In this document: positions 7,821 to 28,993 of the stretch, in pieces
Layout of the letters: every line of letters starts with the position of its first letter
Numbering within the stretch: position 1 is the stretch's first letter
From: Vibrio vulnificus CMCP6
Lineage (GTDB): Bacteria > Pseudomonadota > Gammaproteobacteria > Enterobacterales > Vibrionaceae
DNA: 32,000 nt
Reading direction: 5' to 3'
Assembly: GCF_000039765.1 (NCBI RefSeq)
Contig: NC_004460.2
Span: 660,001-692,000, forward strand
The notes under the pieces: model-generated
Seen by the model: the letters and a program-made list of their open reading frames with translations, nothing else
Told to the model about the DNA's origin: nothing
Database searches by the model: none
Made by a program: the position numbers and the translations under genes

Positions 7821-9149
7821 ATGAAAATAACGCAGTGGAGTCTGATCCTTACAGGCTTAATCGCAATGCCTGCTCTGGCAGATACCGACGTTTACCTAAC
7901 GAACAACTCTGATCAACCGTTAACCATCCAAGTCAAACACGATGGCAGCGACTTACTCAAATATGGTGATGAATGGCAACAGCATGTGCAAACTCTTGGC
8001 CCTTGGGAGACCAAATCGGTTCTTAGTTTTAACCGCTGGGAAGGAGTGAAAACCAATCATACCTACCGCTTTGAAACCGTGGTCTCTAACCCGAAAGGCG
8101 AAAGTATTTCCCTCAATCAGGTAATGAGGGGGCACTGGTACAACTCTTCGATTCAATATGGGGTTAGCGCAGCCGACGTTAATTTGTCTCTTAAAGATGA
8201 CCGCAATGTCCATCGCTCACCAACTTGGGCGTTTGGGGAACGTGAAGTGGAGTTGGCGTTTAAATCCTCCGCCACCGCTCGTTATGACGATCTTCACTAC
8301 ACCATCACACCAAGCAAGGTCTACGAGGTGGCCGATGACAACGATCAGCATCTTAAGATCATGACATACAACATCTGGGCTCTGCCTGCGATTGCATCCC
8401 ATATTGGTGAGCGTTTTGAGCTCATCCCAGACTATGTTAAAGGCTATGATGTGCTCGCATTACAAGAGGTTTTTGCCAATGGCCGCGATGCTTTTTTGCG
8501 TGAACTGGCCAAAGAGTACCCTTATCAAACCAAAATGTTGGATAAGGATGGCTTTAACATTTATGACGGTGGCGTGATCATTGTCAGCCGCTATCCGATT
8601 GTGAATCAGGCGCAGTTTGTTTTTCCTGATTGCACAGGTACCGATTGTTTTGCCGATAAAGGGGTAAATTACGCTGAAGTGATTAAAGGCGGTGAAGCCT
8701 ATCATGTGTTTGCCACACATACCGCGTCATACGATACCGATACTGCGCGCGACTACCGCCAGCGTCAGTTCAAACAGATGCGCGCCCTCGCTCAGTCATT
8801 AAAGATTCCGGCCAATGAGACCGTGGTATACAGCGGCGACTTCAACGTCAATAAGCGTAAGTTCCCAAGTGACTATCAACAGATGATCGCCAACTTAAGC
8901 GCGATTGAACCGCACTACTCAGGCTACACCGAATCAACATTTGATCCTCGTATCAACAATTTTGCAGGCGAGCCTCTCTCTGGTGGCGAGAACGTGGAAT
9001 ATCTCGACTACGTGATGGTGAGTAACGAGTACGCAGTGAAAGGCGATAACAACAACCATGTAGACATCCCCCGCTCAACGGCAGAAAGCTTATGGAAACA
9101 CTATAACCTTTCAGACCACTTCCCAGTTTCTACCGTGATCAAGCCATGA
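7821..9149 (+). CDS. Secreted sphingomyelinase-C-like enzyme of the endonuclease/exonuclease/phosphatase (EEP) superfamily, with an N-terminal ~180-aa domain of unknown function
   Basis: Signal peptide MKITQWSLILTGLIAMPALA. EEP landmarks are MTYNIWALP, VLALQEVF, GDFNV and the C-terminal NLSDHFPV. Confidence 0.78.
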   Translation: MKITQWSLILTGLIAMPALADTDVYLTNNSDQPLTIQVKHDGSDLLKYGDEWQQHVQTLGPWETKSVLSFNRWEGVKTNHTYRFETVVSNPKGESISLNQVMRGHWYNSSIQYGVSAADVNLSLKDDRNVHRSPTWAFGEREVELAFKSSATARYDDLHYTITPSKVYEVADDNDQHLKIMTYNIWALPAIASHIGERFELIPDYVKGYDVLALQEVFANGRDAFLRELAKEYPYQTKMLDKDGFNIYDGGVIIVSRYPIVNQAQFVFPDCTGTDCFADKGVNYAEVIKGGEAYHVFATHTASYDTDTARDYRQRQFKQMRALAQSLKIPANETVVYSGDFNVNKRKFPSDYQQMIANLSAIEPHYSGYTESTFDPRINNFAGEPLSGGENVEYLDYVMVSNEYAVKGDNNNHVDIPRSTAESLWKHYNLSDHFPVSTVIKP

Positions 9150-10129
9150 TGCGTACCATCATCCTTGTTTTTGTCATCACCCTGTCCGCGCTTACCGCGG
9201 GCATGGGTTTTATCACGCTGTTCTCTGGTAACGAGAGTAATGCCGCCACTTCTGCTCAACGAGTGGAGGCCACATCATCTCAGAGTGTAGACACCATTCA
9301 TCATCAACCAACAGACACGATGGTTGCCACTAATGTAAATAGCGTTTCAGCGCGAAAGCAAACCGACAAAACATCCTCAAGCGAGTTACTGGCGGAAATC
9401 CTCCAACAAGCTCAAGGCCAAGAATTGATTGCTGAACTGGACGCCTTTTGGCTCGAATGCCAACCAGAGAAAGGATGCGAAGAACAATTGATGGCGTTAT
9501 CGCCTTATCTCTCAGCGGAACTGTTTGCGCTACTCTCTCAATACCCAGAATTGAACGCACAATGGCAACGCCATTTAGGCGATCTGCTATTTGACAAACA
9601 GCAAGCCTTAAGCGCTCGAATCGCGCAACTTAAAGCACAAGCGAGGGAGATTTGGGGCGAGTTGGCAGATATTCTGTTTGCCGATGAGTTCGCGCTTTAC
9701 GATTTCAGTCTCGACACCGAATCCATTCGCCAAAGCGATCCCGAGGAATTTGTAGCCAATTTTCAGCGTTTGATGGAGCAGTGGCAAAACCGCGAACAAT
9801 CATTAGGACTAGTGAACGATAGTGCCAAATATGAACGAGGTATTTCGCTCATCCCAAGTCATTTTAGCGATGCAGAGCAAGCCGCTATTCGTCAAACTCT
9901 GGAGCAAACTTATCTGTCCAAAGAAGAGCGTGCCAATCTTCAAGCTCGTGAACAAACGGTCGCTAAGCAACAGCAGCAAGTACAAGACTACCAAACCGCC
10001 CTTGCTGAGCTGCAATCGCACCTTAACAAACAAAGAGCCACCAGCCATGCAGAATGGCCTGAATCTGACTGGCAAAATTACTACCAACAGCAAGTCAGTG
10101 AATTTCGCCGTATGTTTTTCTCTTCCTAA
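9146..10129 (+). CDS. Membrane-anchored, Q/E-rich helical protein, possibly a lipase-chaperone (Lif)-like foldase for the upstream enzyme
   Basis: The ATGA start/stop overlap with the EEP gene indicates translational coupling. It has an N-terminal TM anchor (IILVFVITLSALTAGMGFITLF). The helical, Q-rich body is reminiscent of Vibrio Lif proteins, but I did not see the canonical RxxFDY(F/C)L(S/T)A motif. Confidence 0.45.
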   Translation: MMRTIILVFVITLSALTAGMGFITLFSGNESNAATSAQRVEATSSQSVDTIHHQPTDTMVATNVNSVSARKQTDKTSSSELLAEILQQAQGQELIAELDAFWLECQPEKGCEEQLMALSPYLSAELFALLSQYPELNAQWQRHLGDLLFDKQQALSARIAQLKAQAREIWGELADILFADEFALYDFSLDTESIRQSDPEEFVANFQRLMEQWQNREQSLGLVNDSAKYERGISLIPSHFSDAEQAAIRQTLEQTYLSKEERANLQAREQTVAKQQQQVQDYQTALAELQSHLNKQRATSHAEWPESDWQNYYQQQVSEFRRMFFSS

Positions 10130-11434: not shown

Positions 11435-11444
11435 TGCTTAAGAC

Positions 11445-11518
11445 AAGAGCCGCAAAAGCGGCTCTTAATGGTAATGGTGTATGATTTTCGAGGTATCACA
11501 ATACCTTTCTTGACCAAA
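11445..11518. repeat. Left copy of an imperfect direct repeat (hairpin plus flanking sequence); att-like island boundary
   Basis: AAGAGCCGCAAAAGCGGCTCT (11445-11465) is identical to 21081-21101. TGATTTTCGAgGTaTC...CTT-ACCAAA then aligns with 21112-21148 at reduced identity. Confidence 0.5.
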
Positions 11519-12737: not shown

Positions 12738-13832
12738 CAAACTTGGATTCAAGTACGAAGTACGACACCTCTGAACATAAAAACAGTGAGATGCGATAAT
12801 CATGAAGTTTGCTCCCGCCAAGAAGTAAAAAACATGAAATACACGCACCTCACTGAGAACGAAAGATATATCTGCACTCAGAAAGCAAGGAATTAGTACC
12901 GCTAAAATAGCTAAACAACTGGGTCGTCACAAAGCTACTATCTATCGAGAAATTGAACGCAATTCCCGATACAACAGACACTTTAAAAGGTATTCCTATC
13001 AGGCGTGGAGAGCCCAACAAATGGCTCGCAACCGGCTGAGTCGCTCGCGCAGAAATAAGCGCTATACCGAACTTGACTTCAGGTTACCTGAAGCCTTGCT
13101 ACGACTGGATTGGAGTCCTGACCAAATCGTCGGATACCTGAGGGGAAGAGGCTATCCAACAATGAGCCACGAGCTCATTTATCAGTACGTTTGGAACGAC
13201 AAAACTTTCGGTGGAACATTATGGAAGCACCTACGCCAATCCACTAAGAAAAGGCGTAAAAGGCATAACTCAAAAGACAGCCGTGGACGGCTAGCTGCAA
13301 AACGTCATATTACCGAAAGACCAGCAAATGCTGAGCATCGAAAAGAGCCTGGTCATTGGGAAATTGATACCGTCGTTGGCCGAGGAACCAAGCACTGTAT
13401 CGTGACTTTAGTCGACAGAATGACTGGCTATACTTTTATTGGGCAAATGGGCGACAGAACAAGCGAGTCGCTCAACGTAAGAATGAGCAAAATCATGACC
13501 CGCTCTGACTTGCCTTTTAAGACGATAACTGCGGATAACGGCACTGAATTTCATGGTTATGCGCAACTAGAAAAAAAATCATAACTGTCTGTTTTACTTT
13601 GTAAATCCATATCACTCATGGGAGCTAGGCACTAATGAAAACACCAATGGCTTGATACGACAATACTTACCAAAACGAACTTCTATGTCACACGTGACAC
13701 AGAAGTTCTGCAATGAAATTGCCCACAAATTAAATACGCGCCCACGCAAAAGACTTGGGTATAGGACACCAACGGAGTATATTCATGCGCATCTGTAGAA
13801 AGTGTCGCACTTCAAACTTGATACTAAGAAAC
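12738..13832 (+). mobile_element. IS30-family insertion sequence (~1.1 kb) with inactivated transposase
   Basis: Imperfect terminal inverted repeats. The left arm, ...CTTGGATTCAAGTACGAAGTACGACAC, ends at 12768. The right arm, GTGTCGCACTTCAAACTTGATACTAAG..., starts at 13802. Confidence 0.6.
12834..13798 (+). pseudogene. IS30-family transposase with at least two frameshifts
   Basis: MKYTHLTENERY then shifts frame near 12866-12872 into ISALRKQGISTAKIAKQLGRHKATIYREIERN (HTH). The DDE core runs through HWEIDTV...TADNGTEF. A second shift occurs in the A8 run at 13571-13578, after which the frame continues NPYHSWELGTNENTNGLIRQYLPK...RPRKRLGYRTPTE to TAG at 13796-13798. Confidence 0.85.
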
Positions 13833-14436: not shown

Positions 14437-15216
14437 ATGTTTGTATTATCAAAAGGATCGATATCTTTAAAAAGCTTAGATCGACTCTCATCGTATGTCG
14501 TGATCAGTTCACTGCTGGTGTTTTTTACGCAGCACCTGTACGAAAACCACATATTTCAGTACATCGACATTTGTGTTTTGATCTATTTTTCGCTGGAATT
14601 TTTCTTGAGAGTACACGTGCTGTCGTGGAAAAAATATTTTCAGTCTCCATCCTGTCAGTTTGACTTTTTTTTGCTGGTTGTCAGCCTAGTTGCCATACCC
14701 ATATCCAATATCGATAGTGTGATATATTTACGAGTGTTCAGGTTAATCTCGGTTATCCGCGTATTCAAGATCGTTCCAAACGGTTCACAAGTTCTGAGTG
14801 GATTAGCTCGGGCGATCAAAAGCTCCAAAGCGGTGTTGATCCTGCTTTTCTGCCTGCTGTGCTTCTTTTCACTTATTGGATTTATCCTGTTTTCCTCCAG
14901 CGTTCCCGAATATTTCAGTACTCCATTAACATCACTCAACACGGTCTTTGAGATATTTACCATTGAAAACTGGGGCGCATTGCCGGACTCTATCGATAAA
15001 ACTACCCATCCCCTGCTGCACGCAAGCGTCAATGCCTTTACCATCATCGTCCTGGTCAGCGGAGGCTTTATTGCGGTCTCTCTGGCGAATGCCGTGTTCG
15101 TTGATGAACTGGTCAGTGACAACAATGATGATATCAAGCGGGAGATTCTTGAACTAAGACGAGAAAATCGTGAGATTAAACAGCTACTTACGGAGATAAA
15201 CAAAAAGATTGGATAA
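14437..15216 (+). CDS. Six-TM voltage-gated ion channel homologue of the bacterial sodium channel (BacNav/NaChBac/NavAb) family
   Basis: Collinear with recalled NavAb across four regions. S2-S3: FSLEFFLRV...FDFFLLVVSLV. S4 has basic residues every third position: YLRVFRLISVIRVFK. Pore helix and filter: LNTVFEIFTIENWG, versus NavAb FQVMTLESWS. There is also an S6 and a C-terminal coiled coil (DDIKREILELRRENREIKQLLTEI). Confidence 0.75.
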   Translation: MFVLSKGSISLKSLDRLSSYVVISSLLVFFTQHLYENHIFQYIDICVLIYFSLEFFLRVHVLSWKKYFQSPSCQFDFFLLVVSLVAIPISNIDSVIYLRVFRLISVIRVFKIVPNGSQVLSGLARAIKSSKAVLILLFCLLCFFSLIGFILFSSSVPEYFSTPLTSLNTVFEIFTIENWGALPDSIDKTTHPLLHASVNAFTIIVLVSGGFIAVSLANAVFVDELVSDNNDDIKREILELRRENREIKQLLTEINKKIG

Positions 15217-15217
15217 G

Positions 15218-15240
15218 AACGCCTCTGATTCAGAGGCGTT
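15218..15240. terminator. Bidirectional terminator between the channel gene and the convergent five-gene cassette
   Basis: AACGCCTC-TGATTCA-GAGGCGTT perfect hairpin. It sits 2 bp after the channel stop and 6 bp from the stop of the HNH gene. Confidence 0.7.
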
Positions 15241-15245
15241 GTGGG

Positions 15246-17105
15246 TTATGCGATTTCCAGCGTATTATTGTTTTCTAGCAGGGCCATAAAATCATCGCTG
15301 GATCTGATTTTAAGATCGATTTTCATGAAATCGGCTATCACTTCAACGTCAGAGTTGACGTTACTGTCATCATCAATGGCTCTTGATAGATGTTCAGTCA
15401 GCGAACGAAACTGTAGTTTATCTTGGGCCAGCTTGGCTATCGACGCCTCTTCAAACGCATCCGTGTTGTCTTTGATTTGCTGAATTCTCATCTCAAAAAC
15501 TTCTTTTACCCGCTTAGTGCGCAACTCGGCCTTGGTTGAAAAAATATCGGCCTGATCAAGCAGCCAAACCACCAAGGTTGAACCAATCCCTGACACCATG
15601 ATGCTGGTCGCCTCTTTGAGATGCTCACCCACCACAGGGATCATGTCGACATACGGTGATATCACCTGCTCAAAGGTGAAACTCACATAGGTAACCACGG
15701 TCGTGGCAAGCAACTTGGTAATCGCATCGGCTTTTTGAGCTGGAGTGCTGTCACTGAACAAGATCTTGACCGCCTGAATCATGGCATTGAATCCTTCAGA
15801 AATGATCTTCAGCGCCCGTTTTAACATTCCAACAAACAGGTTAACAACCGCATTGATCAGGTACTTTACAAAGTTTTTCAGTGCGTCCTTGATAACATCA
15901 AACCCGATGTGTTTCAGGTTCGCCGTGATGTAACGATACGCTCTCTTAAACCGTAGACCTATCGCATCTAACTTGGAATCGGTCTCAAGCCCGGAAAGCA
16001 CGCCATGTTGTAAAATGTCTCGCAGCTCAAAGAAAATGGGCTTAATGATGAGAATGATGAGCTCACCAATCCCCTTTTCTTCCAGCTCATCTTTCGCCTG
16101 ACTGTAGGCTTCCTTCGCCAGCTTTTTTCCTATGCCATGATCTGTTTTTAACTTGTTGGCCACCACTTTGTTCAGATCACTTTCGATCGCCGCCTTGGCT
16201 GTTTTTTCCGCCTCCAGGGCATTATCCAGCGTTTTTTTCGTCGGCAGGTCATTTAACTCCTGCAGCTCCGACTTGGATAGGGTCCCCGCTCTTTGCTTAT
16301 CCTCAAGCCGGCCTCGCTTGTTCTCGACCCATTGCTGGTATTCACTCCAGGATTTATCTCCTTTTGACGTGTTAAGCTTTCCGGAAATATTCTTAAAATT
16401 CGCGTCCTGGTTGAGCGCCATTTTTAGATCATCGAGCGAAATTGCTTTACTCTGACCATACTCCTCAAAAGCATGTTTCAGCGGAACTTGGTGATCAACA
16501 TTAATCTCACTTTTGGAATAGTTGCTCCCCTGCTCTTTTTTCGCCTGGTTGAGCGCATCGCTTCGCCGGTATAAATAGCGTTTCTGCCCCTGTTCATTGA
16601 CTTCAAGCTCACTTTCGATGCGCCGGTTATTTTTGATACGTCTGTCCAGGTAGTCATCGAGCTTATCGGTATCTTCGACTATCTTCCGCTTACCTTTGTA
16701 TGGCCCCTTATCGTCTCGCTGCTTTCGCGTATGCTCGTCCAGACGTTGTTTATCGAGCCGATGATCGACCGCCATGCTCGCCGACGCATCATAACTGAAA
16801 CTCTGTAACTCATTCACCAACCGGGAGGCTGTAAGCCCCTTTTTTGACAACTTGAGTTTCGGGTGGCTGACCAGGCCGTCACACACGTTCAGCAGGATCG
16901 GCTTAACCAGTGACTCGCCGATGCCCGCTTGACTGTCAGCTACTTGCTCCTCAATGCTCTGTAACACTTCTAGGCTGTCTCGCTGATCGTGCAATTCGAC
17001 ATCGAGCAACACTTTGCAGGCCTGCAGTGGCGAGCAGCCCTCAAGCCGCTCAACTAGCTCGCTACTGGAGAATGACTCGATCTCAAAATCGTGCTTGCTT
17101 GCCAT
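15246..17105 (-). CDS. 619-aa fusion protein: N-terminal domain of unknown function, HNH (His-Me finger) nuclease motif, coiled coil, C-terminal hydrophobic/amphipathic helical domain
   Basis: I take the start at ATG 17105, behind GAGGAGG and 10 bp after the upstream stop. The track start 17192 overlaps the upstream gene. HNH motif: INVDHQVPL (DH at 16491-16496)...NFKNISGKLNTSKGDKS. Hydrophobic helices: GELIILIIKPIFFEL, YLINAVVNLFVGML, LLATTVVTYVSFTF, SIMVSGIGSTLVVWLL. Confidence 0.7.
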   Translation of the reverse strand: MASKHDFEIESFSSSELVERLEGCSPLQACKVLLDVELHDQRDSLEVLQSIEEQVADSQAGIGESLVKPILLNVCDGLVSHPKLKLSKKGLTASRLVNELQSFSYDASASMAVDHRLDKQRLDEHTRKQRDDKGPYKGKRKIVEDTDKLDDYLDRRIKNNRRIESELEVNEQGQKRYLYRRSDALNQAKKEQGSNYSKSEINVDHQVPLKHAFEEYGQSKAISLDDLKMALNQDANFKNISGKLNTSKGDKSWSEYQQWVENKRGRLEDKQRAGTLSKSELQELNDLPTKKTLDNALEAEKTAKAAIESDLNKVVANKLKTDHGIGKKLAKEAYSQAKDELEEKGIGELIILIIKPIFFELRDILQHGVLSGLETDSKLDAIGLRFKRAYRYITANLKHIGFDVIKDALKNFVKYLINAVVNLFVGMLKRALKIISEGFNAMIQAVKILFSDSTPAQKADAITKLLATTVVTYVSFTFEQVISPYVDMIPVVGEHLKEATSIMVSGIGSTLVVWLLDQADIFSTKAELRTKRVKEVFEMRIQQIKDNTDAFEEASIAKLAQDKLQFRSLTEHLSRAIDDDSNVNSDVEVIADFMKIDLKIRSSDDFMALLENNNTLEIA

Positions 17106-17115
17106 AATTACCTCC

Positions 17116-18039
17116 TCATGCGCACAAAGAGTGTGACTGAGACATCTCGTACACCGCTTTAGCTTTCTCGCTGTCGGCGGCAATGAACTCACCCGATTCT
17201 GACAAGTAGCCTAGGCTTGCCATCTGTTTCAGGACGATCGACAAGTTAAACAAGGCACGAAACTCTTCTAAGTGAACAATCGGCAAACGCTTAAAATCGA
17301 GTTTGTGTGCAAACACATCACTGTTTTCGGCCATCTGATGCATGCGTTGGGTCTGGATTCCGTATTCGAACCGGTCCAGTAACTTGCTGTAGTTGACCAC
17401 CAGTTCATCGAAATACACCACCACGTTATCAATTGACTCTTCGATCACCCTAAGTTGCTTCTGTTGTGCCTCCAGCTTGATGATCTCTTCACCTACTCGC
17501 GTACGCTCCTGCTTGGCACGCTCGAGCGACTCTTTGGCTTTCTTACGCGAAAAGAAGCCCAAAGTCAGCACCATGCCCAGTGTATCCAACAGGCCCATCT
17601 GATTAAAATCAATCAACATGATCTCGGATTTTGCCCTGACACCACGCTGCGGTTTAATCTCCAGAATGCGGTCATCGAATAGCTCTTCAAAAGGTTGCCC
17701 CTTAACCGTAACGTTGTGCATCCGCTTTGATACCTTGATAAAACGCTCGAAGTGAATCACGTAAATGTCCTGCTTCTGACGGTTGATCCGGCTGATCTTA
17801 GTCTCGATACTGGCAGATATCTGCCTGACTTCTTGCTCGTAAACCTGCTTGGCATCGGCAAACCGTTTTTCCGTTTCGGCAATGATTGATTCCGCTTCAT
17901 CGGCATAGTGCTGACCCGTAAAGGCGTTCCACACCTTAGAGCACGCCTGCTTTACAGCACCAAAGGCTCTCGATACGCTACTTTTTGCCGCACTAATTTT
18001 GCTTGAACACCAACTTCCTAAGCCGCTAAATAAGCCCAT
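17116..18039 (-). CDS. 307-aa coiled-coil protein with an MGLFSGLGSW N-terminus and one central hydrophobic segment; unknown family (PspA/ESCRT-III-like is only a hypothesis)
   Basis: AAGGA lies before the ATG, 3 nt after the upstream stop. Long heptad-like helical stretches. Central hydrophobic segment GLLDTLGMVLTLGFFS. Confidence 0.6.
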   Translation of the reverse strand: MGLFSGLGSWCSSKISAAKSSVSRAFGAVKQACSKVWNAFTGQHYADEAESIIAETEKRFADAKQVYEQEVRQISASIETKISRINRQKQDIYVIHFERFIKVSKRMHNVTVKGQPFEELFDDRILEIKPQRGVRAKSEIMLIDFNQMGLLDTLGMVLTLGFFSRKKAKESLERAKQERTRVGEEIIKLEAQQKQLRVIEESIDNVVVYFDELVVNYSKLLDRFEYGIQTQRMHQMAENSDVFAHKLDFKRLPIVHLEEFRALFNLSIVLKQMASLGYLSESGEFIAADSEKAKAVYEMSQSHSLCA

Positions 18040-18042
18040 ACA

Positions 18043-18447
18043 TTATTCCTTATCAATCATGGCGTAGCCTTCCGCCACCATATCGTTCATGGCACTCACC
18101 CAACGCTGCATCTTCTTCGCTTCATAGCCGTCGATCGCTAGTGCGTCGCTGAGCTTGCCCATAAACGCCTCTTCCTCGATGCACACTTCACCGTCGGCCA
18201 ACAGGATCCCGAACAGTTCAACCAGTATGATGCGTTTGCTTTTCCCTTTTGATTTTGCCAGCACTTTGATCACGGACTCAATGTTGTCCTGCTTGGTAAG
18301 GGTATGCTCCGTCAGACCACATTCCTGCACGAACGACTGATAAATCATCTGCTCTTCGGCCTTCTGCTCACCGTCCAACCCCATGGCATATTTCGCCAGT
18401 TCCAGGAAATTCTTCTTCTCGCCAATATTCAGTTCGGATAAGTACAT
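18043..18447 (-). CDS. 134-aa TerB-like domain protein
   Basis: Two-lobed pattern: FLELAKYAMGLDGEQKAEEQMIYQSF and LVELFGILLADGEVCIEEEAFMGKLSDAL. This resembles the TerB / DjlA-N-type repeat (A.ADG....E). GGGGA lies before the ATG. Confidence 0.55.
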   Translation of the reverse strand: MYLSELNIGEKKNFLELAKYAMGLDGEQKAEEQMIYQSFVQECGLTEHTLTKQDNIESVIKVLAKSKGKSKRIILVELFGILLADGEVCIEEEAFMGKLSDALAIDGYEAKKMQRWVSAMNDMVAEGYAMIDKE

Positions 18448-18463
18448 GTGTTGTCCCCAATAA

Positions 18464-19624
18464 TTAGTACGCTGTTTCTAGTTTTTGTTTTTCGTTGCCT
18501 TTCGGGTCATAGACCGTCTCAATGCGCTTGCTTATTTCACCGGCATCGTCATACAGGTATTCGAACACCAGGTTTCCGGCCTGGTCGAATTCACAACCCC
18601 GCGCCGGTTTTCCGTCCTCATTAAACGTCATCTGGTATTTGAGCTGGGTACCGGCAAAGGTATCACTGCTGCGCTTTTTGCCGTTTTTATAGTAAATCTG
18701 CGTCACCTGACCGGAGTGCTTGTCCTCGATCTGGGTCACTTTGCAATCGCCTAGCCGCTTGACGAAATCGTCCGTGTCAATCGTCAGATCCTGATGCCTG
18801 GCCAGTTCATTGGTCAGGCTCACCAGGTTATCGACCCGTAACTGCTGGATCTGGGTGGTTAACTGTTCAAGCTGGGCAATACCGGCCTGCTTGGCAGTGA
18901 AATCACGCTTATCATCCAGTTGATGAAGCGTTTGCAACAAGGCTTTCAGGCTGCTGTGGGACTGGCCCACCAGCTTCTGCACGTGGATAAACTCTTCGCT
19001 CTGTTTTTTTGTCAGTGACTGGGCACATTCCGCTTGGGTGCGTGCCAACTCAGAGTGTAGATGACGGCTTTCCTGGTGCTGCTCCTGGCTCAATGCATGT
19101 AGAGCCGCGATCTGCCTTTGCTGCTCTGCTGCCTGCTGCGCGATCAGTCCATCGGTTCTCGCTTGTATCGCAGACAAGTTGGCCCCCGTGCTGGTGTGCT
19201 GCTCCTGTAACTTTTGATCCAGCGCCAGCGCTGCACCTTTTAGCTCAGCCTCAGTCTCGGCAAGCTGTGAAGAGAGCTGAGTCAGCCCGCTTACCACTTC
19301 CTTCTCCGCAGCGGACAGGCGCGCTATCACTTGTTCTCCCTGCTGGCTAACTTCAGCAGTAACGTGCTGGATTGTGTCACCAGCAGCGGTTTTCATCACA
19401 CTGAGCAACTGGTCCGTTTTATCGCTGAGATGTTGGCTTAGCTCACCAGCTTGCCTGTCCATTTGCGCACAGTGCTGATCAAACCTGGCATTTACCCGCT
19501 CAGATTCATCGAGTGCCCATTGCTGCATCTGATGCTTTTTGTTGATCGAGATAGCTTGAAGTAGCACAACCAAGCCAGCACAGCCAACCAATGTCCAAAA
19601 TAGTAGCTCTAACGTAATTTCCAT
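18464..19624 (-). CDS. 386-aa single-pass membrane protein with a long Q/A/E-rich coiled coil and a C-terminal beta-hairpin-repeat (MORN/YD-like) module
   Basis: N-terminal TM segment LLFWTLVGCAGLVVLLQAISI. About 230 aa predicted helical. The C-terminus QIYYKNGKK...FNEDGKP...FDQAGNLVFEYLYDDAGEISKRIETVYDPKGNE has a G/Y-periodic repeat pattern. AAGGGA lies before the ATG. Confidence 0.6.
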   Translation of the reverse strand: MEITLELLFWTLVGCAGLVVLLQAISINKKHQMQQWALDESERVNARFDQHCAQMDRQAGELSQHLSDKTDQLLSVMKTAAGDTIQHVTAEVSQQGEQVIARLSAAEKEVVSGLTQLSSQLAETEAELKGAALALDQKLQEQHTSTGANLSAIQARTDGLIAQQAAEQQRQIAALHALSQEQHQESRHLHSELARTQAECAQSLTKKQSEEFIHVQKLVGQSHSSLKALLQTLHQLDDKRDFTAKQAGIAQLEQLTTQIQQLRVDNLVSLTNELARHQDLTIDTDDFVKRLGDCKVTQIEDKHSGQVTQIYYKNGKKRSSDTFAGTQLKYQMTFNEDGKPARGCEFDQAGNLVFEYLYDDAGEISKRIETVYDPKGNEKQKLETAY

Positions 19625-19664
19625 TATTGTTCCCTTACACAGGTTTTTACTTTGTTGTTGAGTA

Positions 19665-20657
19665 TCAGGAGACCGATGCCATCGGCTGGAGCTCGATATC
19701 CCAAATATTGTCGCCGAAGCTGTTTAGCCACTTTTTCAGGTAAAGCGAATCAATCACACTCGCGCTAATGTGCAGCGAATCATCACGCTCAACGACTTGC
19801 TGGTCCTTTGACAGCGGTGTTTCGCGCAGAAAGTAACCATCTGACTTGGTGATACAGAACTGCAGTCGACACTGCTGACCTTCGCCAAAGCCAAACCTTC
19901 CATCCGCATCGTATTTTGCCAGGTCAAAATCCACCGGGCGGTCAAAGATGAAGGTGGACAAGTGCGCGATGCTCACCCGATGGATGGCCAAAGTTCGCTC
20001 ATTCGTGTAACCTTCGAAACGACAGACTAGGTAAAGTCTGTTACCCTGCTGCGCGATACCAAGTGGCATAACGGTCGCTTTTTTCGGTTCGTTTTTGCTG
20101 TTGGTGTATTCAAGGCTCAACCACCGGTCTTCGTACAGACCCTGGCTGATGATCCTGAGTACTTCTTCGTCCAGATGCGGGGCGAGCAGAGGCTGGTTTT
20201 CACTTACAACTCTAACCTTCTTCAGCCAGTTTCGCTCTTTTTTGTTAGGTGAGGCCGGATTAAGCTGGTAGTCCGCCTCATAAAAGAACCCGCTCATGGC
20301 AGCCAACACTTTGCTCGGCAAAAGGCCCGCCAGGTATTCCCGAGCCAAGTGAAACAGCAGGGACTCCTGGGCCGAGAGGGTCGGCAGACTGAGTACCGCG
20401 TTGGCTTGGGTCAGCTTATATCCATAAGGTTTGCTTTTGTCATTGCGGTCAAGGTTAAACTGCTCTGATAAGGTTTCCATGATCCTCTGTAAAGTTCGGA
20501 TATCGCGTTCAATGCCTACCTCAGCCAACTGACTATGCAGCTCTTTAACCGTGATATACCTAGACTTGGGAATGCGTTTAAGGATCTCAAGGGCCAAGTT
20601 CAGAGATTCATTCAGAGATGACTTTTTTTTCATTTTAAGCTCATTTGTATACTGCAT
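19665..20657 (-). CDS. WYL-domain transcriptional regulator (N-terminal wHTH, WYL, C-terminal extension), BrxR/CapW-like
   Basis: wHTH-like segment ITVKELHSQLAEVGIERDIRTLQRIMETL. WYL-type core DRWLSLEYTNSKNEPKKATVMPLGIAQQGNRLYLVC. C-terminal ~100 aa domain. It is the first gene of the cassette. An alternative start is at 20633 (MKKKSS). Confidence 0.78.
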   Translation of the reverse strand: MQYTNELKMKKKSSLNESLNLALEILKRIPKSRYITVKELHSQLAEVGIERDIRTLQRIMETLSEQFNLDRNDKSKPYGYKLTQANAVLSLPTLSAQESLLFHLAREYLAGLLPSKVLAAMSGFFYEADYQLNPASPNKKERNWLKKVRVVSENQPLLAPHLDEEVLRIISQGLYEDRWLSLEYTNSKNEPKKATVMPLGIAQQGNRLYLVCRFEGYTNERTLAIHRVSIAHLSTFIFDRPVDFDLAKYDADGRFGFGEGQQCRLQFCITKSDGYFLRETPLSKDQQVVERDDSLHISASVIDSLYLKKWLNSFGDNIWDIELQPMASVS

Positions 20658-21080
20658 CTCGTGCGTCGAATAGCAAAAACTATCACAAAGACGCTATACA
20701 TTGCGTGATTTACGCCAGATTTATATTAGAGTTTTTTGATAGAAATCATACTCATATCGTTTATGATAATTTTACCGCTAGCTGCGTCAGAATATGTCGG
20801 ATGCAAAACACTGATTTCGGCAACAAAGTCCTTTTCATCTTACTCTCGGGAGGGTTCTGGAAGACTATCAAAGGTTCGGCTAACTAATGGCTGCTACGAA
20901 ATACCCTGAAAGCTCTTTTACTAACGCATCAGTTTAACCCTTGGTATCGTGGGAACGACTTATGTGTTTCCTTTAGGAGCACATTTCCGGATAATCCGAT
21001 ATCCTAGGAAGACAAAACCATCACTTATAATACGCTCACAAATCCATATTTTGTCGCCACTTACCAAATTTTGGAAAAAA

Positions 21081-21148
21081 AAGAGCCGCAAAAGCGGCTC
21101 TAGATAGTTTGTGATTTTCGAAGTGTCGGCTTACTTCTCTTTACCAAA
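21081..21148. repeat. Right copy of the direct repeat; also the native guaC terminator plus the last guaC codons
   Basis: The hairpin AAGAGCCGC-AAAA-GCGGCTCTT is preceded on the plus strand by A8, which is a T8 tail on the minus strand after guaC. It aligns with 11445-11518. Confidence 0.6.
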
Positions 21149-21394
21149 CACGTTGTTCTCTTGCTCAAGAACGCGGATGAACGTGGTGCGTTTTGTTAGC
21201 TCGCGAAGCTCGGCTGCGCCTACATAAGTACAAGTTGAACGCACGCCGCCAAGGATGTCTTGAATGGTGCCGTGAACACTGCCACGGTAAGGCAATAGTA
21301 CGGTTTTTCCTTCCGCTGCTCGGTAGCCTGCGACGCCGCCAGAGTGCTTGTCCATCGCGCTCTTTGAAGACATGCCGTATAACCTCAAGCGCAA
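21131..21394 (-). pseudogene. guaC: 3'-terminal fragment (~85 of ~347 codons) of GMP reductase gene guaC
   Basis: [76 protein letters not shown] is collinear with the recalled E. coli GuaC C-terminus ([34 protein letters not shown]...[33 protein letters not shown]). Homology stops near 21385-21400. Confidence 0.85.
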
Positions 21395-22364
21395 CCAAAA
21401 CAACCTTTTAAAAACAAATACTTAATGGAATATACATGTATAAAACAAGGTAAAATATGGCGAATAAGCACTCTCTTTTACGTTGTTTTTCAATGGGCGC
21501 CGCCATTTTTGCCGCCACTAAATATCCATACGAGCACTAGACCAACTAATAAACAGTCCCAAAGTCATAATTCCAAAAAGACACATACTCATCACTATGC
21601 TTAAGTGAGCATAAAGAAGAGGCATGGTAAAATCTTATTACTTACCACTATACTGCACGCAACATACCTGTAGTGGCAATCAAATCCCACAAGAGGAGTG
21701 CCATTCAGCACTCCTTTTCCGTTTTTAGAGGCTCTCAATGGCAGGTGTAACCCAGTTTCTTTATGGCACATGGCAATACTGTGTTCTTCTTGTTCACTCA
21801 CCTTCAGCCCTATATCGAAGTTAGGCAAAAGCATAACCCGCGCGTTTACACCAAGTTCTGTTGGTTAGCTCTAAACTGGCGAATCAAAAGGGACAACAAA
21901 GACCACAAATAGGTAAGCCAAGCACTATAAGAATCACGTGATGCTTTGGCCCGATATTTAAAATCCCAAACAAATACCATTGTGCGATTTCGGTATTTTC
22001 ATACATTGCTTGCACTTTCATTTTTCACGCATAGTGATTGCATTGATATTGGAATGATTGAAAACAAAGCGTCATTCGCGTTTACTTTTGAATCCAATAC
22101 ATAACTAAAAGAGTCGGCTGCTCTTTCTGCTGAAAGCGCCACAGATGGGCGCAGGACAGCTTAAATAACCTAACCAAATTCAGGCGCCTGTTAGGTGAGG
22201 CGCAGACCAATGCCAGTATTCTGAGTATCAATGCAAGCATCATCACTCGGTCTGAGGGAGTTAATTGGGAATATCACCTAAGCCTTTAACTTAAACCTTA
22301 AAGGTTGAGTTTGACTACACAAACTCACAAGCCAGTTTGTAGCACGAGCTCTGTAAGGGGCTCC

Positions 22365-26298: not shown

Positions 26299-26691
26299 AT
26301 GAGTATGTTTAAATTCTCATCAATGCTCTTTGCTGCACTGCTCTTAACAGGCTGCGCAGCAGGTCTCGGCGAAGATTATAGCTGCACGAAAGTTGGCGGC
26401 GTACCAGGCTGCACCACCATGGACGAAGCCCGTCGAAATATAGAACTCTACGCCAGCTCAGAAAACCAAACTTCCACTGAACAAACTCATCGTGTTCCAA
26501 CAGATTTTATGACCTTACCGAGACGCACACGACAAGGTGAGCCAACACGAACGAATGATGTAGTGAAAAAAGTCACCGTTTTTCCTTTTATTGATAAAAA
26601 CGGTCATTACATTGATACCACAGATATCTATGTCATCCTCGATGACAGCCGTTGGACAGGTAGCCCAGTGCGCGCCATTTGGAAGGACTGA
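26299..26691 (+). CDS. traV: Type-F conjugative transfer lipoprotein TraV
   Basis: Lipobox LLTGCAAG. YSCTKVGGVPGCTTMDEA matches F TraV FECNATTSDTCMTMEQA. The C-terminus PFIDKNGHY...VILDDSRW resembles APYIDNQDVYH...FVIKPSAW. Confidence 0.85.
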   Translation: MSMFKFSSMLFAALLLTGCAAGLGEDYSCTKVGGVPGCTTMDEARRNIELYASSENQTSTEQTHRVPTDFMTLPRRTRQGEPTRTNDVVKKVTVFPFIDKNGHYIDTTDIYVILDDSRWTGSPVRAIWKD

Positions 26692-26693
26692 TT

Positions 26694-28993
26694 ATGTTCA
26701 GAAACTTTTTTTCAAAGCCCAAAACGGGTACGTTGGGGGCATTTTATCAAGACGTCAAAAAGCATCAAAATCATTTCCATCATGAGCTCCCTTATCGCAC
26801 CTTCGACAATAACACCAAGATTTTCCTAAATCGAGCGGCCCATGGCATTGGGTTTAAGCTCAACATCTTAGGCGGTGCTAACGATGAGCTCATTCATTCC
26901 CTCAATAAGTTAGTGTGCGAATTTCCTCAAGGGGATAAATGGGATTACCAACTGTCGCTTCTTGGCCACAACAAAGTGGCGCATTATATTGAGGCCAATC
27001 AAGCGCTCATGAGCAAGCGTGGAGGCATTTGCGAAACCCTCGCCGCCAAAGAGGCGCAATATTCGCAATTCGCAGCCACACAAGGATTTTTCCACAAACA
27101 GCGTCACCATTTTGATCTCCGTGATTACGAAGCGTATTTCTTTGTCTCCACCACGACAAAAGACGATGAATCGCTGTGCGACTTACGAGCAACCATTGAA
27201 ACGGCCTTCACCCAGCTTGGCATTGATACTCAAAGGCTGACACCAGAGGGGCTTATTACCTTTACTGGCGACATCTTAAACTTTGATGCGATGCAAGCGC
27301 GCCCTATCAAGCGCCCCTACAACCGTTATGACCCCATCAATCAACAAGTGATGTCGAGTGATACTGAGCTGCTTATTCATCGCAACCATATCGCCACTCG
27401 TCACACTAACCATGAGGGTATAGAGACACGCACACGAACGGTCTGTATGGGACTCGCCCGAACCCCAAGCGACTTTCGGCTCTACGCGCTACCTGAGTGT
27501 TTTGCATCGATCCGCAATATCGCCAGGCATGTCACGTGTCCCCACGTCCTGACTTTAAACTTTCGTCAAGAAGTAACGGGAAACTTTGAGCATGACAATA
27601 ACCGCAAGATTTCAGACCTCACCAAAACGGTCGGCTCGTCTCTGGCTATGATTATGCCAACGGCCAAAGATGAACTGGAAGAGCGTAAAGGGTTGCAAAA
27701 AGGACTCAGTGACAAAGAGTTTACCATCAGCTCAATGGTGCTCAATTTAACTCTGTTTACCAATCAAACTCATCAGCGTCGTGATGTTCAGGCGGCTCTG
27801 GCGCAGGAAAAAGCTTCTTCGTGCAAAGCATGGCCAAGTCGGTTTATGCGTATGGGGGTAAATGTTGGATTTTAGATAAAGGCGCCAGTTACAAAAAGCT
27901 CACGCTTATGCTCGGAGGCTCCTACCTCGATCACCGAAACATCTACCTCAATCCATTCACTCACCTTGGTAAAGTGATGGACAGCGCAAAACAAGCCAAA
28001 GAAACCCTGCAATTTGTCAACGACGATGGGCAACATGAAAACGTAGATCCCATCAAAGAAGCACTCAGTAACATTACCGCGCTGTTCGCCACTATCGCCT
28101 CGCCTTATCAAGAGCTAGAAAGCTACCAGATGGCGGTCCTTGGTGATGCCATCATTCGCGCTTGGGAGCGAAAACACACCAAAACCTTGGTGGACGATGT
28201 TCAAACGGCCTTGTTCGAGCTGTCAAAAGAGTATAACGATGATCGCCGTATCCATGATATCGCCGTGCAGTTGAACAAATATTGCAGCAACGGTATTTAT
28301 GGCGACACCTTTAATAAACCGTCCATGCTCGACCCAACCATCGACATCACCACCTTAGAGCTCGATGGTTTCAACGAAGACGTTCTGCGTCCCGTCATTT
28401 TTGCACTGATTGTCTCTATCAACCAACAGATGTACCTGTCTGGCTCTCGCTCTACGCCTAAGATGTGCATCATTGAAGAAGCCTGGAGCTTGATGAGTGG
28501 CGCTAACGCTCAGACCCGAACCTTCATCAATACCGGTTATCGCACAGCGCGTAAGTTTGGTGGCTCATTTTGCACCGTTACTCAAGGCATTATCGACTTT
28601 TTTGCCAATGAAGAAGCCCGGGCCAGTTACGATAACAGCGATATCCATATGGTACTGAGACAAGGTGACGGCTTCGATAAGTTCTTAACCGACAACCCGA
28701 AAGCGTTCAGTGAGATGGAAGAGCGGATCATTAAAAGTTTTCCGCGAGCCAGTGACGCAGGTTACAGCTGTGTTCGCGTCAAAGCCGGTGGGCATACCTC
28801 GTATCACCGCATGTTTTCTGACCCTTTTTCACGCGCCTGTTTAAGCACCGAACCTCATGAGTTTGAGTTCTGCGAAAACCTGATGAATAAAGGCATGCCG
28901 CTCATGGAGGCCATTAACGCCACCGCGGAGCACTTTTACGGTAAGGAAATTGCCGAATTTGAACACGCGCTCAAAGCTAAGGAGGCCGCATGA
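26694..28993 (+). pseudogene. traC: traC (VirB4-family conjugative ATPase), split into two frames immediately before the Walker A box
   Basis: The N-terminal part runs in frame 1 to 27875. The Walker A box, GGSGAGKSFFVQ, is encoded in another frame from 27791, after an in-frame TGA at 27782-27784. Downstream motifs are IIEEAW (Walker B-like), GYRTARKFGG and ITQ. The start is taken at ATG 26694, behind AAGGA. Confidence 0.8.

Follow-up and report, generated by a model that had tools for sequence, protein, structure and literature searches.

What is the role of a compact group of five genes that occupies positions 15246-20657 of the 32,000-nucleotide (nt) stretch of Vibrio vulnificus CMCP6 that we analyzed (contig NC_004460.2, positions 660,001 to 692,000)? 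This stretch is hereafter called the window, and coordinates refer to it unless a locus is named. The genes, designated G1 to G5 in order of transcription, begin with a WYL-domain regulator and end with a probable nuclease, and an earlier note on this DNA had proposed that they form a new defense or abortive-infection module. We view the cassette as a horizontally mobile module that is most likely an anti-phage or anti-mobile-DNA defense system, a reading to which we give an even chance. More specifically, the cassette would be a regulated, multigene candidate for defense with a nuclease effector, and we propose a specific mechanism for it with low confidence.

The gene order recurs in distant organisms. 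When one genome per species was scanned, 15 loci with a relative of G5 were obtained, and later look-ups raised the set to 23 distinct loci. In all 15 loci of the genome scan, G2, G3, G4 and G5 have the same order and orientation, with gaps of 3-18 nt, and the four genes are co-linear in 23 of the 23 distinct loci, which bears out the block conservation that the earlier note had proposed to check. The hosts in the scan are Vibrio, seven Shewanella species, two Pseudoalteromonas, an Oceanospirillaceae metagenome-assembled genome (MAG), Thiomicrorhabdus and two Campylobacterota MAGs, and the added loci come from further Vibrio, Agarivorans, two metagenome contigs and a Clostridium butyricum megaplasmid. 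On the megaplasmid, a WYL gene is followed by genes for proteins of 961, 134, 306 and 548 amino acids (aa), among which hhalign detects homologues of G3 (E = 1.3e-24) and G4 (E = 2.7e-43); the 961-aa protein aligns weakly, through its C-terminus, to the C-terminal domain of G2. The conserved unit is therefore the four genes G2 to G5, it is found in at least three phyla, and the recurrence of its order is far beyond chance. Within Vibrio, the block is present in at least six species, and the exact cassette proteins occur in V. vulnificus, including CMCP6 (AAO07566-AAO07570), each on 215-294 contigs.

In the ORF (open reading frame) list of the window, all five genes lie on the minus strand in the same direction. 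The start of G1 is probably M9 at 20633, because homologues measure 315-322 aa; from this start, G1 (19665-20633, in an ORF that reaches 20657) encodes a 322-aa transcription regulator with a Pfam WYL domain and a predicted helix-turn-helix (HTH)-WYL-WCX organization. It is followed by G2 (18464-19624), whose 386-aa product combines a signal anchor, a coiled coil and a beta-rich C-terminal domain; by G3 (18043-18447), which encodes a small TerB-like protein of 134 aa; by G4 (17116-18039), which encodes an all-helical hairpin protein of 307 aa; and by G5 (15246-17105), which encodes the probable effector, a 619-aa protein with an HNH-like domain. We place the start of G5 at the ATG that begins 'MASKH', because the N-termini of homologues agree there; a longer ORF that opens with GTG and extends to 17192 overlaps G4 and is unsupported. 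The four intergenic gaps are exactly 40, 16, 3 and 10 nt, in the order G1-G2 to G4-G5. Purine-rich stretches that resemble Shine-Dalgarno sequences precede G2, G3, G4 and G5, and the best of them, GAGGAGG before G5, overlaps the stop codon of G4. Both features, as well as the perfect hairpin described below and the WYL domain of the first gene, had been read correctly in the earlier note. GC content is 0.49-0.52 in the cassette versus 0.41-0.45 in its flanks.

The hairpin (15218-15240) pairs perfectly over 10 bp around a loop of 3 nt; it is bidirectional and is probably the terminator of the cassette. Its folding energy is -15.6 kcal/mol on the minus strand (z = -6.1) and -16.9 kcal/mol on the plus strand (z = -4.5), relative to shuffled sequences; it separates the convergent stops of G5 and a neighboring ion-channel gene, and its T-tract is weak. 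At the other end, the putative promoter or operator region on the minus strand (20634-20825) moves together with the cassette. It contains an inverted repeat (CTATCACAAA / TTTTTGATAG, at 20680-20689 and 20733-20742) and a weak sigma-70-like site at 20790-20763, for which the match count is not above that of shuffled sequences. The block shared at 92% identity with two other loci, L017 and L018, reaches as far as 20825. No Rfam families or tRNAs were found in the window.

The probable effector, G5, begins with a helical domain, which is followed by an HNH-like domain (about aa 140-310). A hydrophobic helical domain, also conserved, spans about aa 340-520, and the protein ends in a coiled coil. 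The HNH-like domain carries the residues D204, H205, N236, N245 and K248, which are invariant in 27 homologues (alignment A1). Across 183 representatives of the wider superfamily, position 204 is D in 156 and E in 5, and the other residues are conserved in 159 (H205), 163 (N236), 163 (N245) and 159 (K248), the rest being gaps in fragments. The AlphaFold2 model of G5 has an overall predicted local distance difference test (pLDDT) score of 69 and is confident only over aa 140-310, where the score is about 90. In this region, a strand at 200-205 bears D204 and H205, N236 is followed by a strand at 237-241, and a helix at 242-248 bears N245 and K248. The region thus has the site pattern of His-Me-finger (HNH) nucleases plus a two-helix insertion, with the D/E-H pair, the structural Asn and the metal-binding Asn/His of the catalytic pattern all present. 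The spacings from N236 to N245 (9) and from N245 to K248 (3) are the same as those among N854, N863 and K866, which we take to be the corresponding residues of SpCas9. A fold search with the whole 619-aa model, in which AlphaFold2 predicts this beta-beta-alpha region, returned nothing significant, and a Pfam scan of 21 trimmed HNH-like domains gave single sub-threshold matches (GmrSD_C at 0.016, GH-E at 0.041) with no consistent family. We therefore describe G5 as a probable, not an established, nuclease.

G5 belongs to a large unnamed superfamily. At E <= 1e-3, an exhaustive profile search recovered 1138 cluster representatives; 221 of them reach E <= 1e-30, and most are 550-650 aa long. In variant loci, a G5-like protein occurs with other, unrelated partners: a protein of about 180 aa in Cronobacter (177 aa), Photobacterium and Pseudomonas, or proteins of 88 aa and 307 aa in Bacillus. 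We had considered that G4 and G5 might form a minimal core, and we dropped this idea because neither G4 nor G3 is a homologue of the 177-aa partner of Cronobacter or of the 307-aa and 88-aa partners of Bacillus. The neighbors of variant loci include prokaryotic Argonaute (pAgo) and McrBC-like genes, and one such locus adjoins a TerY-P triad. As a separate observation, the sole significant viral structural neighbor of the G5 model is a 524-aa protein of Aeromonas phage LAh10 (BFVD A0A514A1D6), with a probability of 1.00 and an E of 2.5e-6 in Foldseek. This protein is labeled 'putative cobalamin adenosyltransferase', was not recovered by tblastn against phage records, and may be either a phage-borne relative or a decoy.

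Among the remaining proteins of the block, G2 begins with a hydrophobic helix (aa 1-29, Kyte-Doolittle peak 2.26). In 15 of 15 homologues, the N-terminal tip is acidic and the transmembrane segment is followed by basic residues, a charge pattern from which we predict an N-out/C-in topology. The middle of G2 is a coiled coil rich in Q, S and T and variable in length, and its end is a conserved beta-rich domain of about 135 aa. Homologues measure 185-402 aa, or 961 aa in Clostridium, and the C-terminus stays conserved. The earlier note had described G2 as a transmembrane protein with beta-hairpin repeats at its C-terminus; the anchor is well supported, and the C-terminal repeats are only weakly similar to Rhs/YD (0.016) and MORN_2 (0.42). 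In three Shewanella species, the coiled coil of G2 (L005:2750-3958, L006:2769-3977, L011:7472-8635) contains two to three tandem repeats of about 35 aa (LDTALQDSLSKVLAQLGS.H.E.Q..VNE..RQ), so that repeat expansion changes the length of the G2 rod between two conserved ends.

G3 is the best-conserved component, with a mean column identity of 67% across 13 taxa. The TerB-like character attributed to it earlier is borderline by Pfam (PF05099, E = 6.9e-5, 23.6 bits versus a gathering score of 24.4, over 94 of 118 profile positions) and agrees with the NCBI name, 'TerB family'. Precomputed Pfam annotations of homologues read 'TerB (weak)', and a G3 profile reaches the TerB-like structure 2ou3 in the PDB at 0.08. 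For G4, none of 112 homologues has a Pfam domain. The protein starts with an MGLFS segment, and its AlphaFold2 model (pLDDT 64) is a long helical hairpin (about aa 43-104 and 164-238), whose connecting region bears a conserved TLGFFSRKKAKESL motif. When profiles of G5, of its HNH region, of G4, of G3 and of the C-terminus of G2 were searched against solved structures, no match was significant, and the weak Rhs and TerB similarities were the only hints. In public databases, G2 is labeled 'methyl-accepting chemotaxis protein', and G4 and G5 are labeled 'DNA repair protein' or 'ATPase involved in DNA repair'. No scan found a chemotaxis, ATPase or repair domain in G2, G4 or G5, and these misleading names probably derive from coiled-coil similarity.

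In one alternative, the cassette causes abortive infection by membrane damage. G4 and the C-terminal domain of G5 would be latent alpha-helical pore-formers, similar to ClyA and tripartite toxins or to tape-measure proteins, that are released from a scaffold of G2 and G3 on infection; the HNH-like domain would then be a sensor or a secondary effector, and in Vibrio the neighboring channel would amplify or sense depolarization. Foldseek comparison of the moderate-confidence G4 model with the PDB finds generic coiled coils only, among which the ClyA pore 2wcd has the top TM-score (0.36, E 0.84, probability 0.51), and the SmhB pore appears among the matches of the similarly moderate G5 model (E ~3.5). 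Moreover, G4 and G5 both match the hydrophobic segment of PHROG tape-measure profiles, the hydrophobic domain of G5 has conserved charged residues (E360, R388, K458, D460 and D520), one G5 relative is annotated 'membrane protein', and a NaChBac-like channel travels with the cassette. However, the structural matches are all non-significant (E ~0.1-4), and the hydrophobic segments are marginal: every Kyte-Doolittle window of G4 is below 1.4, and the best 19-residue windows in the hydrophobic helical domain of G5 peak at 1.45, so the C-terminal half of G5 is no classical multi-pass membrane domain. The nuclease-type motif is also the most strictly conserved feature of G5, which would be surprising in a dispensable element. 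We consider this alternative rather unlikely.

To compare the cassette with known systems, we scanned the five proteins against PADLOC-DB 2.0, NCBIfam 20, Pfam and PHROGs, and they matched no named defense system; literature searches (PDC-M40, TerB+HNH+WYL) found no account of the cassette. The earlier claim that the genes match no known system thus stands for named systems, and it needs qualification for G5, which belongs to a superfamily of more than 1000 clusters and matches PDC-M40B (PDLC04630) at E = 3.9e-14 (50.3 bits), a distant and partial similarity between aa 147-526 and positions 88-444 of the 547 in the profile. A Bacillus relative of G5 matches the same profile at 2.8e-11. PDC-M40 is an untested candidate of three families (FAM_02470>>FAM_01369>>FAM_02062) proposed by 'guilt-by-embedding' in BREX, DISARM or type I restriction-modification (RM) loci (Payne et al. 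2024, bioRxiv 10.1101/2024.01.29.577857). G5 and PDC-M40B share a superfamily and a two-domain core, HNH-like plus helical, whereas G2, the TerB-like G3 and G4 are not among the parts of PDC-M40, and neither PDC-M40A nor PDC-M40C has a match among the window proteins at E <= 1.

With respect to mechanism, the best analogue is SNIPE, a membrane-bound nuclease that cuts phage DNA during injection and whose N-out/C-in anchor spares the chromosome (Saxton et al. 2025, bioRxiv 10.1101/2025.11.03.685801). SNIPE is a tested case in which foreign DNA is recognized by its location; the analogy concerns mechanism only and implies no sequence relationship. G2 is likewise predicted to be a single-pass N-out/C-in anchor with an elongated, cytoplasmic helical part. 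SNIPE, however, is one polypeptide with a DUF4041 domain and a GIY-YIG nuclease (bioRxiv 10.1101/2025.11.03.685801), whereas the anchor (G2) and the HNH-like nuclease (G5) are separate proteins here and have two more partners. No cassette protein matches DUF4041 or GIY-YIG, and we rejected membership in SNIPE.

Membership in Shango and in Zorya was rejected as well. A small TerB-family protein is a constant part of the cassette, as in Shango and the Ter and TerY-P clusters. Shango consists of the TerB protein SngA, a helicase (SngB) and an ATPase (SngC), whereas the cassette lacks a helicase, ATPase, TerD, VWA, kinase or phosphatase, and none of the five proteins matches the Sng or TerY-P models of PADLOC. 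Zorya and Kiwa couple membrane-embedded sensors to cytoplasmic, DNA-targeting effectors, and the cassette resembles them in combining a membrane component that has a long coiled coil with a nuclease-type effector in one operon. The only similarity of G2 to ZorA (0.046-0.048) is confined to the coiled-coil region and is at chance level, and there are no homologues of ZorB, MotB-like proteins, KwaA or KwaB among the cassette proteins, so that the MotAB-like motor of Zorya is missing. Aa 12-96 of G4 match the C-terminus of the PADLOC LeoB model at 3.5e-6; we rejected Eleos, this match lying only on the low-complexity N-terminus of G4. JukAB, which had only generic neighborhood terms in common with the cassette, was dropped. 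Judged by these comparisons, the cassette falls outside every named system and has one distant component in common with the untested PADLOC candidate.

The regulator G1 matches WYL in Pfam (4.4e-9) and in PADLOC (1.4e-15). Its match to WCX (0.0052) is under the cut-off, and WCX is above the cut-off in the regulators of loci L012 and L013, both of which also carry HTH_DeoR/HTH_11. As a single sequence, G1 matches no solved WYL protein. A profile of 11 regulators located upstream of G5-family operons aligns to the WYL and WCX regions of solved WYL regulators, matching PafBC (1.6e-20), DriD (7.6e-14), BrxR (7qfz, 3.5e-5) and CapW (2.3e-3). Thus, the architecture of a winged HTH, a WYL domain and a C-terminal WCX or BrxR_CTD domain is present, and a specific likeness of G1 to BrxR or CapW is not. 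The earlier label 'BrxR-type' does not hold, because a Pfam scan of G1 finds neither WHD_BrxR nor BrxR_CTD (PF26109, PF26107) and PafBC and DriD are matched far better. On sequence grounds, G1 is best described as an HTH-WYL-WCX regulator that is not specifically BrxR-type. It resembles BrxR in BREX, CapW in CBASS, PafBC and DriD as a regulator of this architecture that is located immediately upstream and is co-directional; it differs from the BrxR-BREX and CapW-CBASS arrangements in being nearest to PafBC and DriD and in its absence from many loci.

The gene immediately upstream of the four-gene block encodes a WYL regulator in 10 or more of the 23 distinct loci. These regulators are often non-orthologous, having diverged too far, which suggests that regulators were recruited repeatedly. 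The regulator is facultative and outside the conserved core, being missing from about half of the loci, so that the earlier description of a regulator heading the cassette applies to its position and not to membership in the core.

Two further loci with WYL regulators were observed. On Citrobacter freundii plasmid NZ_CP056645.1 (L024:3234-10946), a G1 homologue with 47% identity heads another operon, in which the regulator is followed by genes for a 404-aa Ubiq_cyt_C_chap-like protein, a 528-aa 'membrane protein' of the G5 family, a radical SAM protein and a histidinol-phosphatase. One regulator lineage therefore serves two architectures around G5-family proteins. This variant has no counterpart in E. 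coli genomes. In the closest relatives (L017:13639-19347 and L018:12833-18541), the stretch just past the channel gene encodes a regulator that is truly of BrxR type (WHD_BrxR, WYL and BrxR_CTD) and stands divergent to genes for proteins of 471 aa and 1069 aa, both without a Pfam match, and this BrxR-headed pair may be a second uncharacterized, WYL-associated defense candidate.

The copy in the window has the mobile-island context described in the earlier note. Imperfect direct repeats at 11440-11516 and 21076-21150 correspond to the 3' end of guaC plus its terminator; they are about 72% identical over approximately 75 nt, with an identical 20-nt hairpin core, and they bracket a 9.6-kb segment in which the cassette and the channel gene lie together with insertion sequence (IS) scars and a SpoU methylase gene. 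Of guaC itself, the window holds a 90-aa 3' fragment only (21131-21403). The 3' end of guaC looks like a tandem-integration hotspot, at which elements have accreted in tandem at an attachment (att) site. An ISVa6 element of the IS30 family (~12742-13829) shares about 95% identity with plasmid-borne copies from Vibrio and Photobacterium, and its transposase ORF is shortened to 187 aa, which marks it as an inactivated scar. F-type tra genes extend from about 22.9 kb onward.

The segment 14396-20825 (6.4 kb) appears to have moved as one unit. Its nucleotide identity to the block in L017 and L018, from other Vibrio genomes, is 92% (92.7%), and the flanks are unrelated; the shared content comprises the channel gene, all five cassette genes and approximately 170 nt of upstream region. 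Elsewhere, the four-gene block is found in an integrase- and resolvase-bearing mini-island in Shewanella and in AlpA/RadC/DUF2787 islands together with Mrr, the BrxR-headed gene pair and a TIR protein. One locus adjoins RmuC and a type III RM system. Among 149 flanking proteins, there are matches to PtuA, retron reverse transcriptase/ATPase, BnzA, AriA, GajA and mads. Some copies are clean indels among housekeeping genes. The context is mobile or defense-rich in many loci and not in all. Adjacency to known defense genes, for which the earlier note had proposed a test of enrichment, is seen in a number of genomes.

Such a location could also mean that the cassette serves its carrier and not the host. 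As an addiction module of toxin-antitoxin-like type, or in inter-element competition or entry exclusion, it would benefit the island or integrative and conjugative element (ICE) that bears it. The window copy does lie in the guaC tandem-integration hotspot beside F-type tra genes, relatives reside on megaplasmids and plasmids, and the cassette is compact and has a potentially toxic nuclease. However, many chromosomal indel copies have no element genes nearby, and a gene pattern resembling a small antitoxin is missing. Furthermore, sequence searches of IMG/VR contigs and of phage records found no relatives, a result on which we also rejected a phage origin. We consider a role in the service of the element very unlikely.

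Two observations concern genes near the island. The conjugative ATPase TraC seems to be divided between two ORFs that overlap in different frames (26679-27875, TraC_F_IV, N-terminal; 27821-28993, P-loop_TraG, C-terminal), which suggests a frameshift, and the neighboring conjugative element may therefore be defective. Upstream of the island, a gene for a 442-aa Exo_endo_phos-family protein (7821-9149, plus strand) overlaps by 4 nt a gene for a 327-aa protein without a Pfam match (9146-10129, plus strand).

In favor of a defense function are the match of G5 to PDC-M40B, the precedent of SNIPE, the topology of G2 and the predicted beta-beta-alpha region of G5. The following points weigh against it. 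No curated HNH profile in Pfam matches G5 significantly, so that of the earlier assignment of G5 as an HNH nuclease the near-invariant motif stands and profile support does not. A profile of the HNH region has no match in the PDB, and hhalign comparison with the HNH domain of SpCas9 aligned VDHxVP alone (E 4.8e-4, probability 32%). The AlphaFold2 models of G4 and G5 are moderate (pLDDT 64-69) and have no informative PDB neighbors. The earlier note had counted three membrane-associated helical proteins, and a clear transmembrane helix is found in G2 alone, so that membrane association of G4 and G5 is a conjecture. Several loci lie amid ordinary metabolic genes with no defense or mobility genes nearby, and a PADLOC check of 10 chosen large flanking ORFs gave a defense-type match for 1 of the 10 (IetA-like). 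Finally, the regulators are nearer to the DNA-damage activators PafBC and DriD than to defense repressors, and a role in stress response would fit as well.

This last point leads to the alternative of a module for DNA-damage or envelope stress, in which a PafBC/DriD-like activator would induce a membrane-associated TerB complex, and the nuclease would process damaged or membrane-attached DNA. This scheme parallels what has been proposed for the stress systems of the Ter cluster and would account for the TerB domain, the affinity of the regulator profile to PafBC and DriD, the loci in housekeeping surroundings that lack mobility and defense genes, and the presence of the exact proteins in hundreds of V. 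vulnificus assemblies. It does not sit well with a patchy distribution in which near-identical copies are found across Vibrio species and islands, with copies on integrase-bearing mini-islands and plasmids, or with neighbors that are recurrently RM, Septu, retron, TIR and pAgo genes. In addition, about half of the loci lack the regulator, and the label 'DNA repair protein' is not accompanied by a detectable repair domain. We regard a stress-response module as unlikely.

We therefore return to the interpretation of the cassette as an accessory conflict system, probably assembled at the inner membrane, because of its tight, phylum-spanning gene order, patchy and mobile distribution, repeated acquisition of WYL regulators, frequent defense neighbors, strictly conserved nuclease-type motif and membrane anchor. 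Here, assembly and localization are inferred, as are nuclease activity and phage specificity. Under this interpretation, G1 would keep expression conditional by responding to a nucleic-acid ligand or a ligand of DNA-damage type, as its relatives PafBC, DriD, BrxR and CapW do. G2 would join the TerB-like G3, the hairpin protein G4 and G5 in a stoichiometric, membrane-proximal complex. The His-Me-finger (HNH-like) site of G5, of which the motif is observed, would be held at the membrane, away from the chromosome, where it would cut DNA that enters via the envelope. Self and non-self would be told apart by location, as for the unrelated SNIPE. The hydrophobic helical domain of G5 might provide docking to the membrane or to the complex, or a second, membrane-damaging output. 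The outcome could be either direct protection or abortive infection. Judged from these predicted components, the earlier suggestion of envelope sensing with a nuclease output is reasonable.

A further component may exist in Vibrio. Convergent with G5 and within the same 6.4-kb moving block is a gene for a 259-aa NaChBac-like voltage-gated ion channel (14437-15216, plus strand; Pfam Ion_trans 3.4e-27, PDB NaChBac 2e-20), which the earlier note had overlooked. Related channel genes occur in three Vibrio lineages, at L001:11907-12719 (72% aa identity), L017:12518-13297 (>90%, as inferred from the 92.7% nucleotide identity of the block and a protein cluster at >=90%) and L019:12133-12966 (38%). 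The gene adjoins G5 in L001 and L019 and is co-directional with the cassette in L019, and channel accessions are consecutive or near-consecutive with those of cassette genes in at least five Vibrio species. Among the loci examined, the channel is not beside the block outside Vibrio, nor in the Vibrio-like locus L028. The channel may be a clade-specific accessory component, or it may be a hitch-hiker.

The four genes could also be a new kind of inner-membrane surveillance machine, wired in Vibrio to membrane voltage through the NaChBac-type channel. G2 as an anchored coiled-coil 'ruler', G3 as a TerB adaptor and the hairpin protein G4 would together gate G5 where DNA enters, and G5 would have a dual function, with an HNH nuclease and a helical domain that inserts into the membrane. 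We consider this quite improbable; were it true, the channel would be the first voltage-gated ion channel known to belong to a prokaryotic immune system, and G5 would define a large effector superfamily (more than 1000 clusters) that pairs with several sensor modules and WYL regulators.

Should the cassette prove to be a defense system, it would represent a new, cross-phylum four-gene architecture whose families almost all lack a Pfam or NCBIfam model. It would supply a function for a superfamily of more than 1000 clusters whose members are now labeled 'DNA repair protein', 'chemotaxis protein' and 'membrane protein', a concrete set of partners for TerB domains, and a second, multi-subunit example of the discrimination of foreign from self DNA by nuclease location. 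Cross-phylum conservation, superfamily size, prevalence in pathogenic Vibrio and linkage to a channel make this cassette stand out among many candidates. Given its presence in hundreds of V. vulnificus assemblies and several other pathogenic Vibrio, the cassette could affect phage therapy or biocontrol and the flow of plasmids or ICEs in these organisms.

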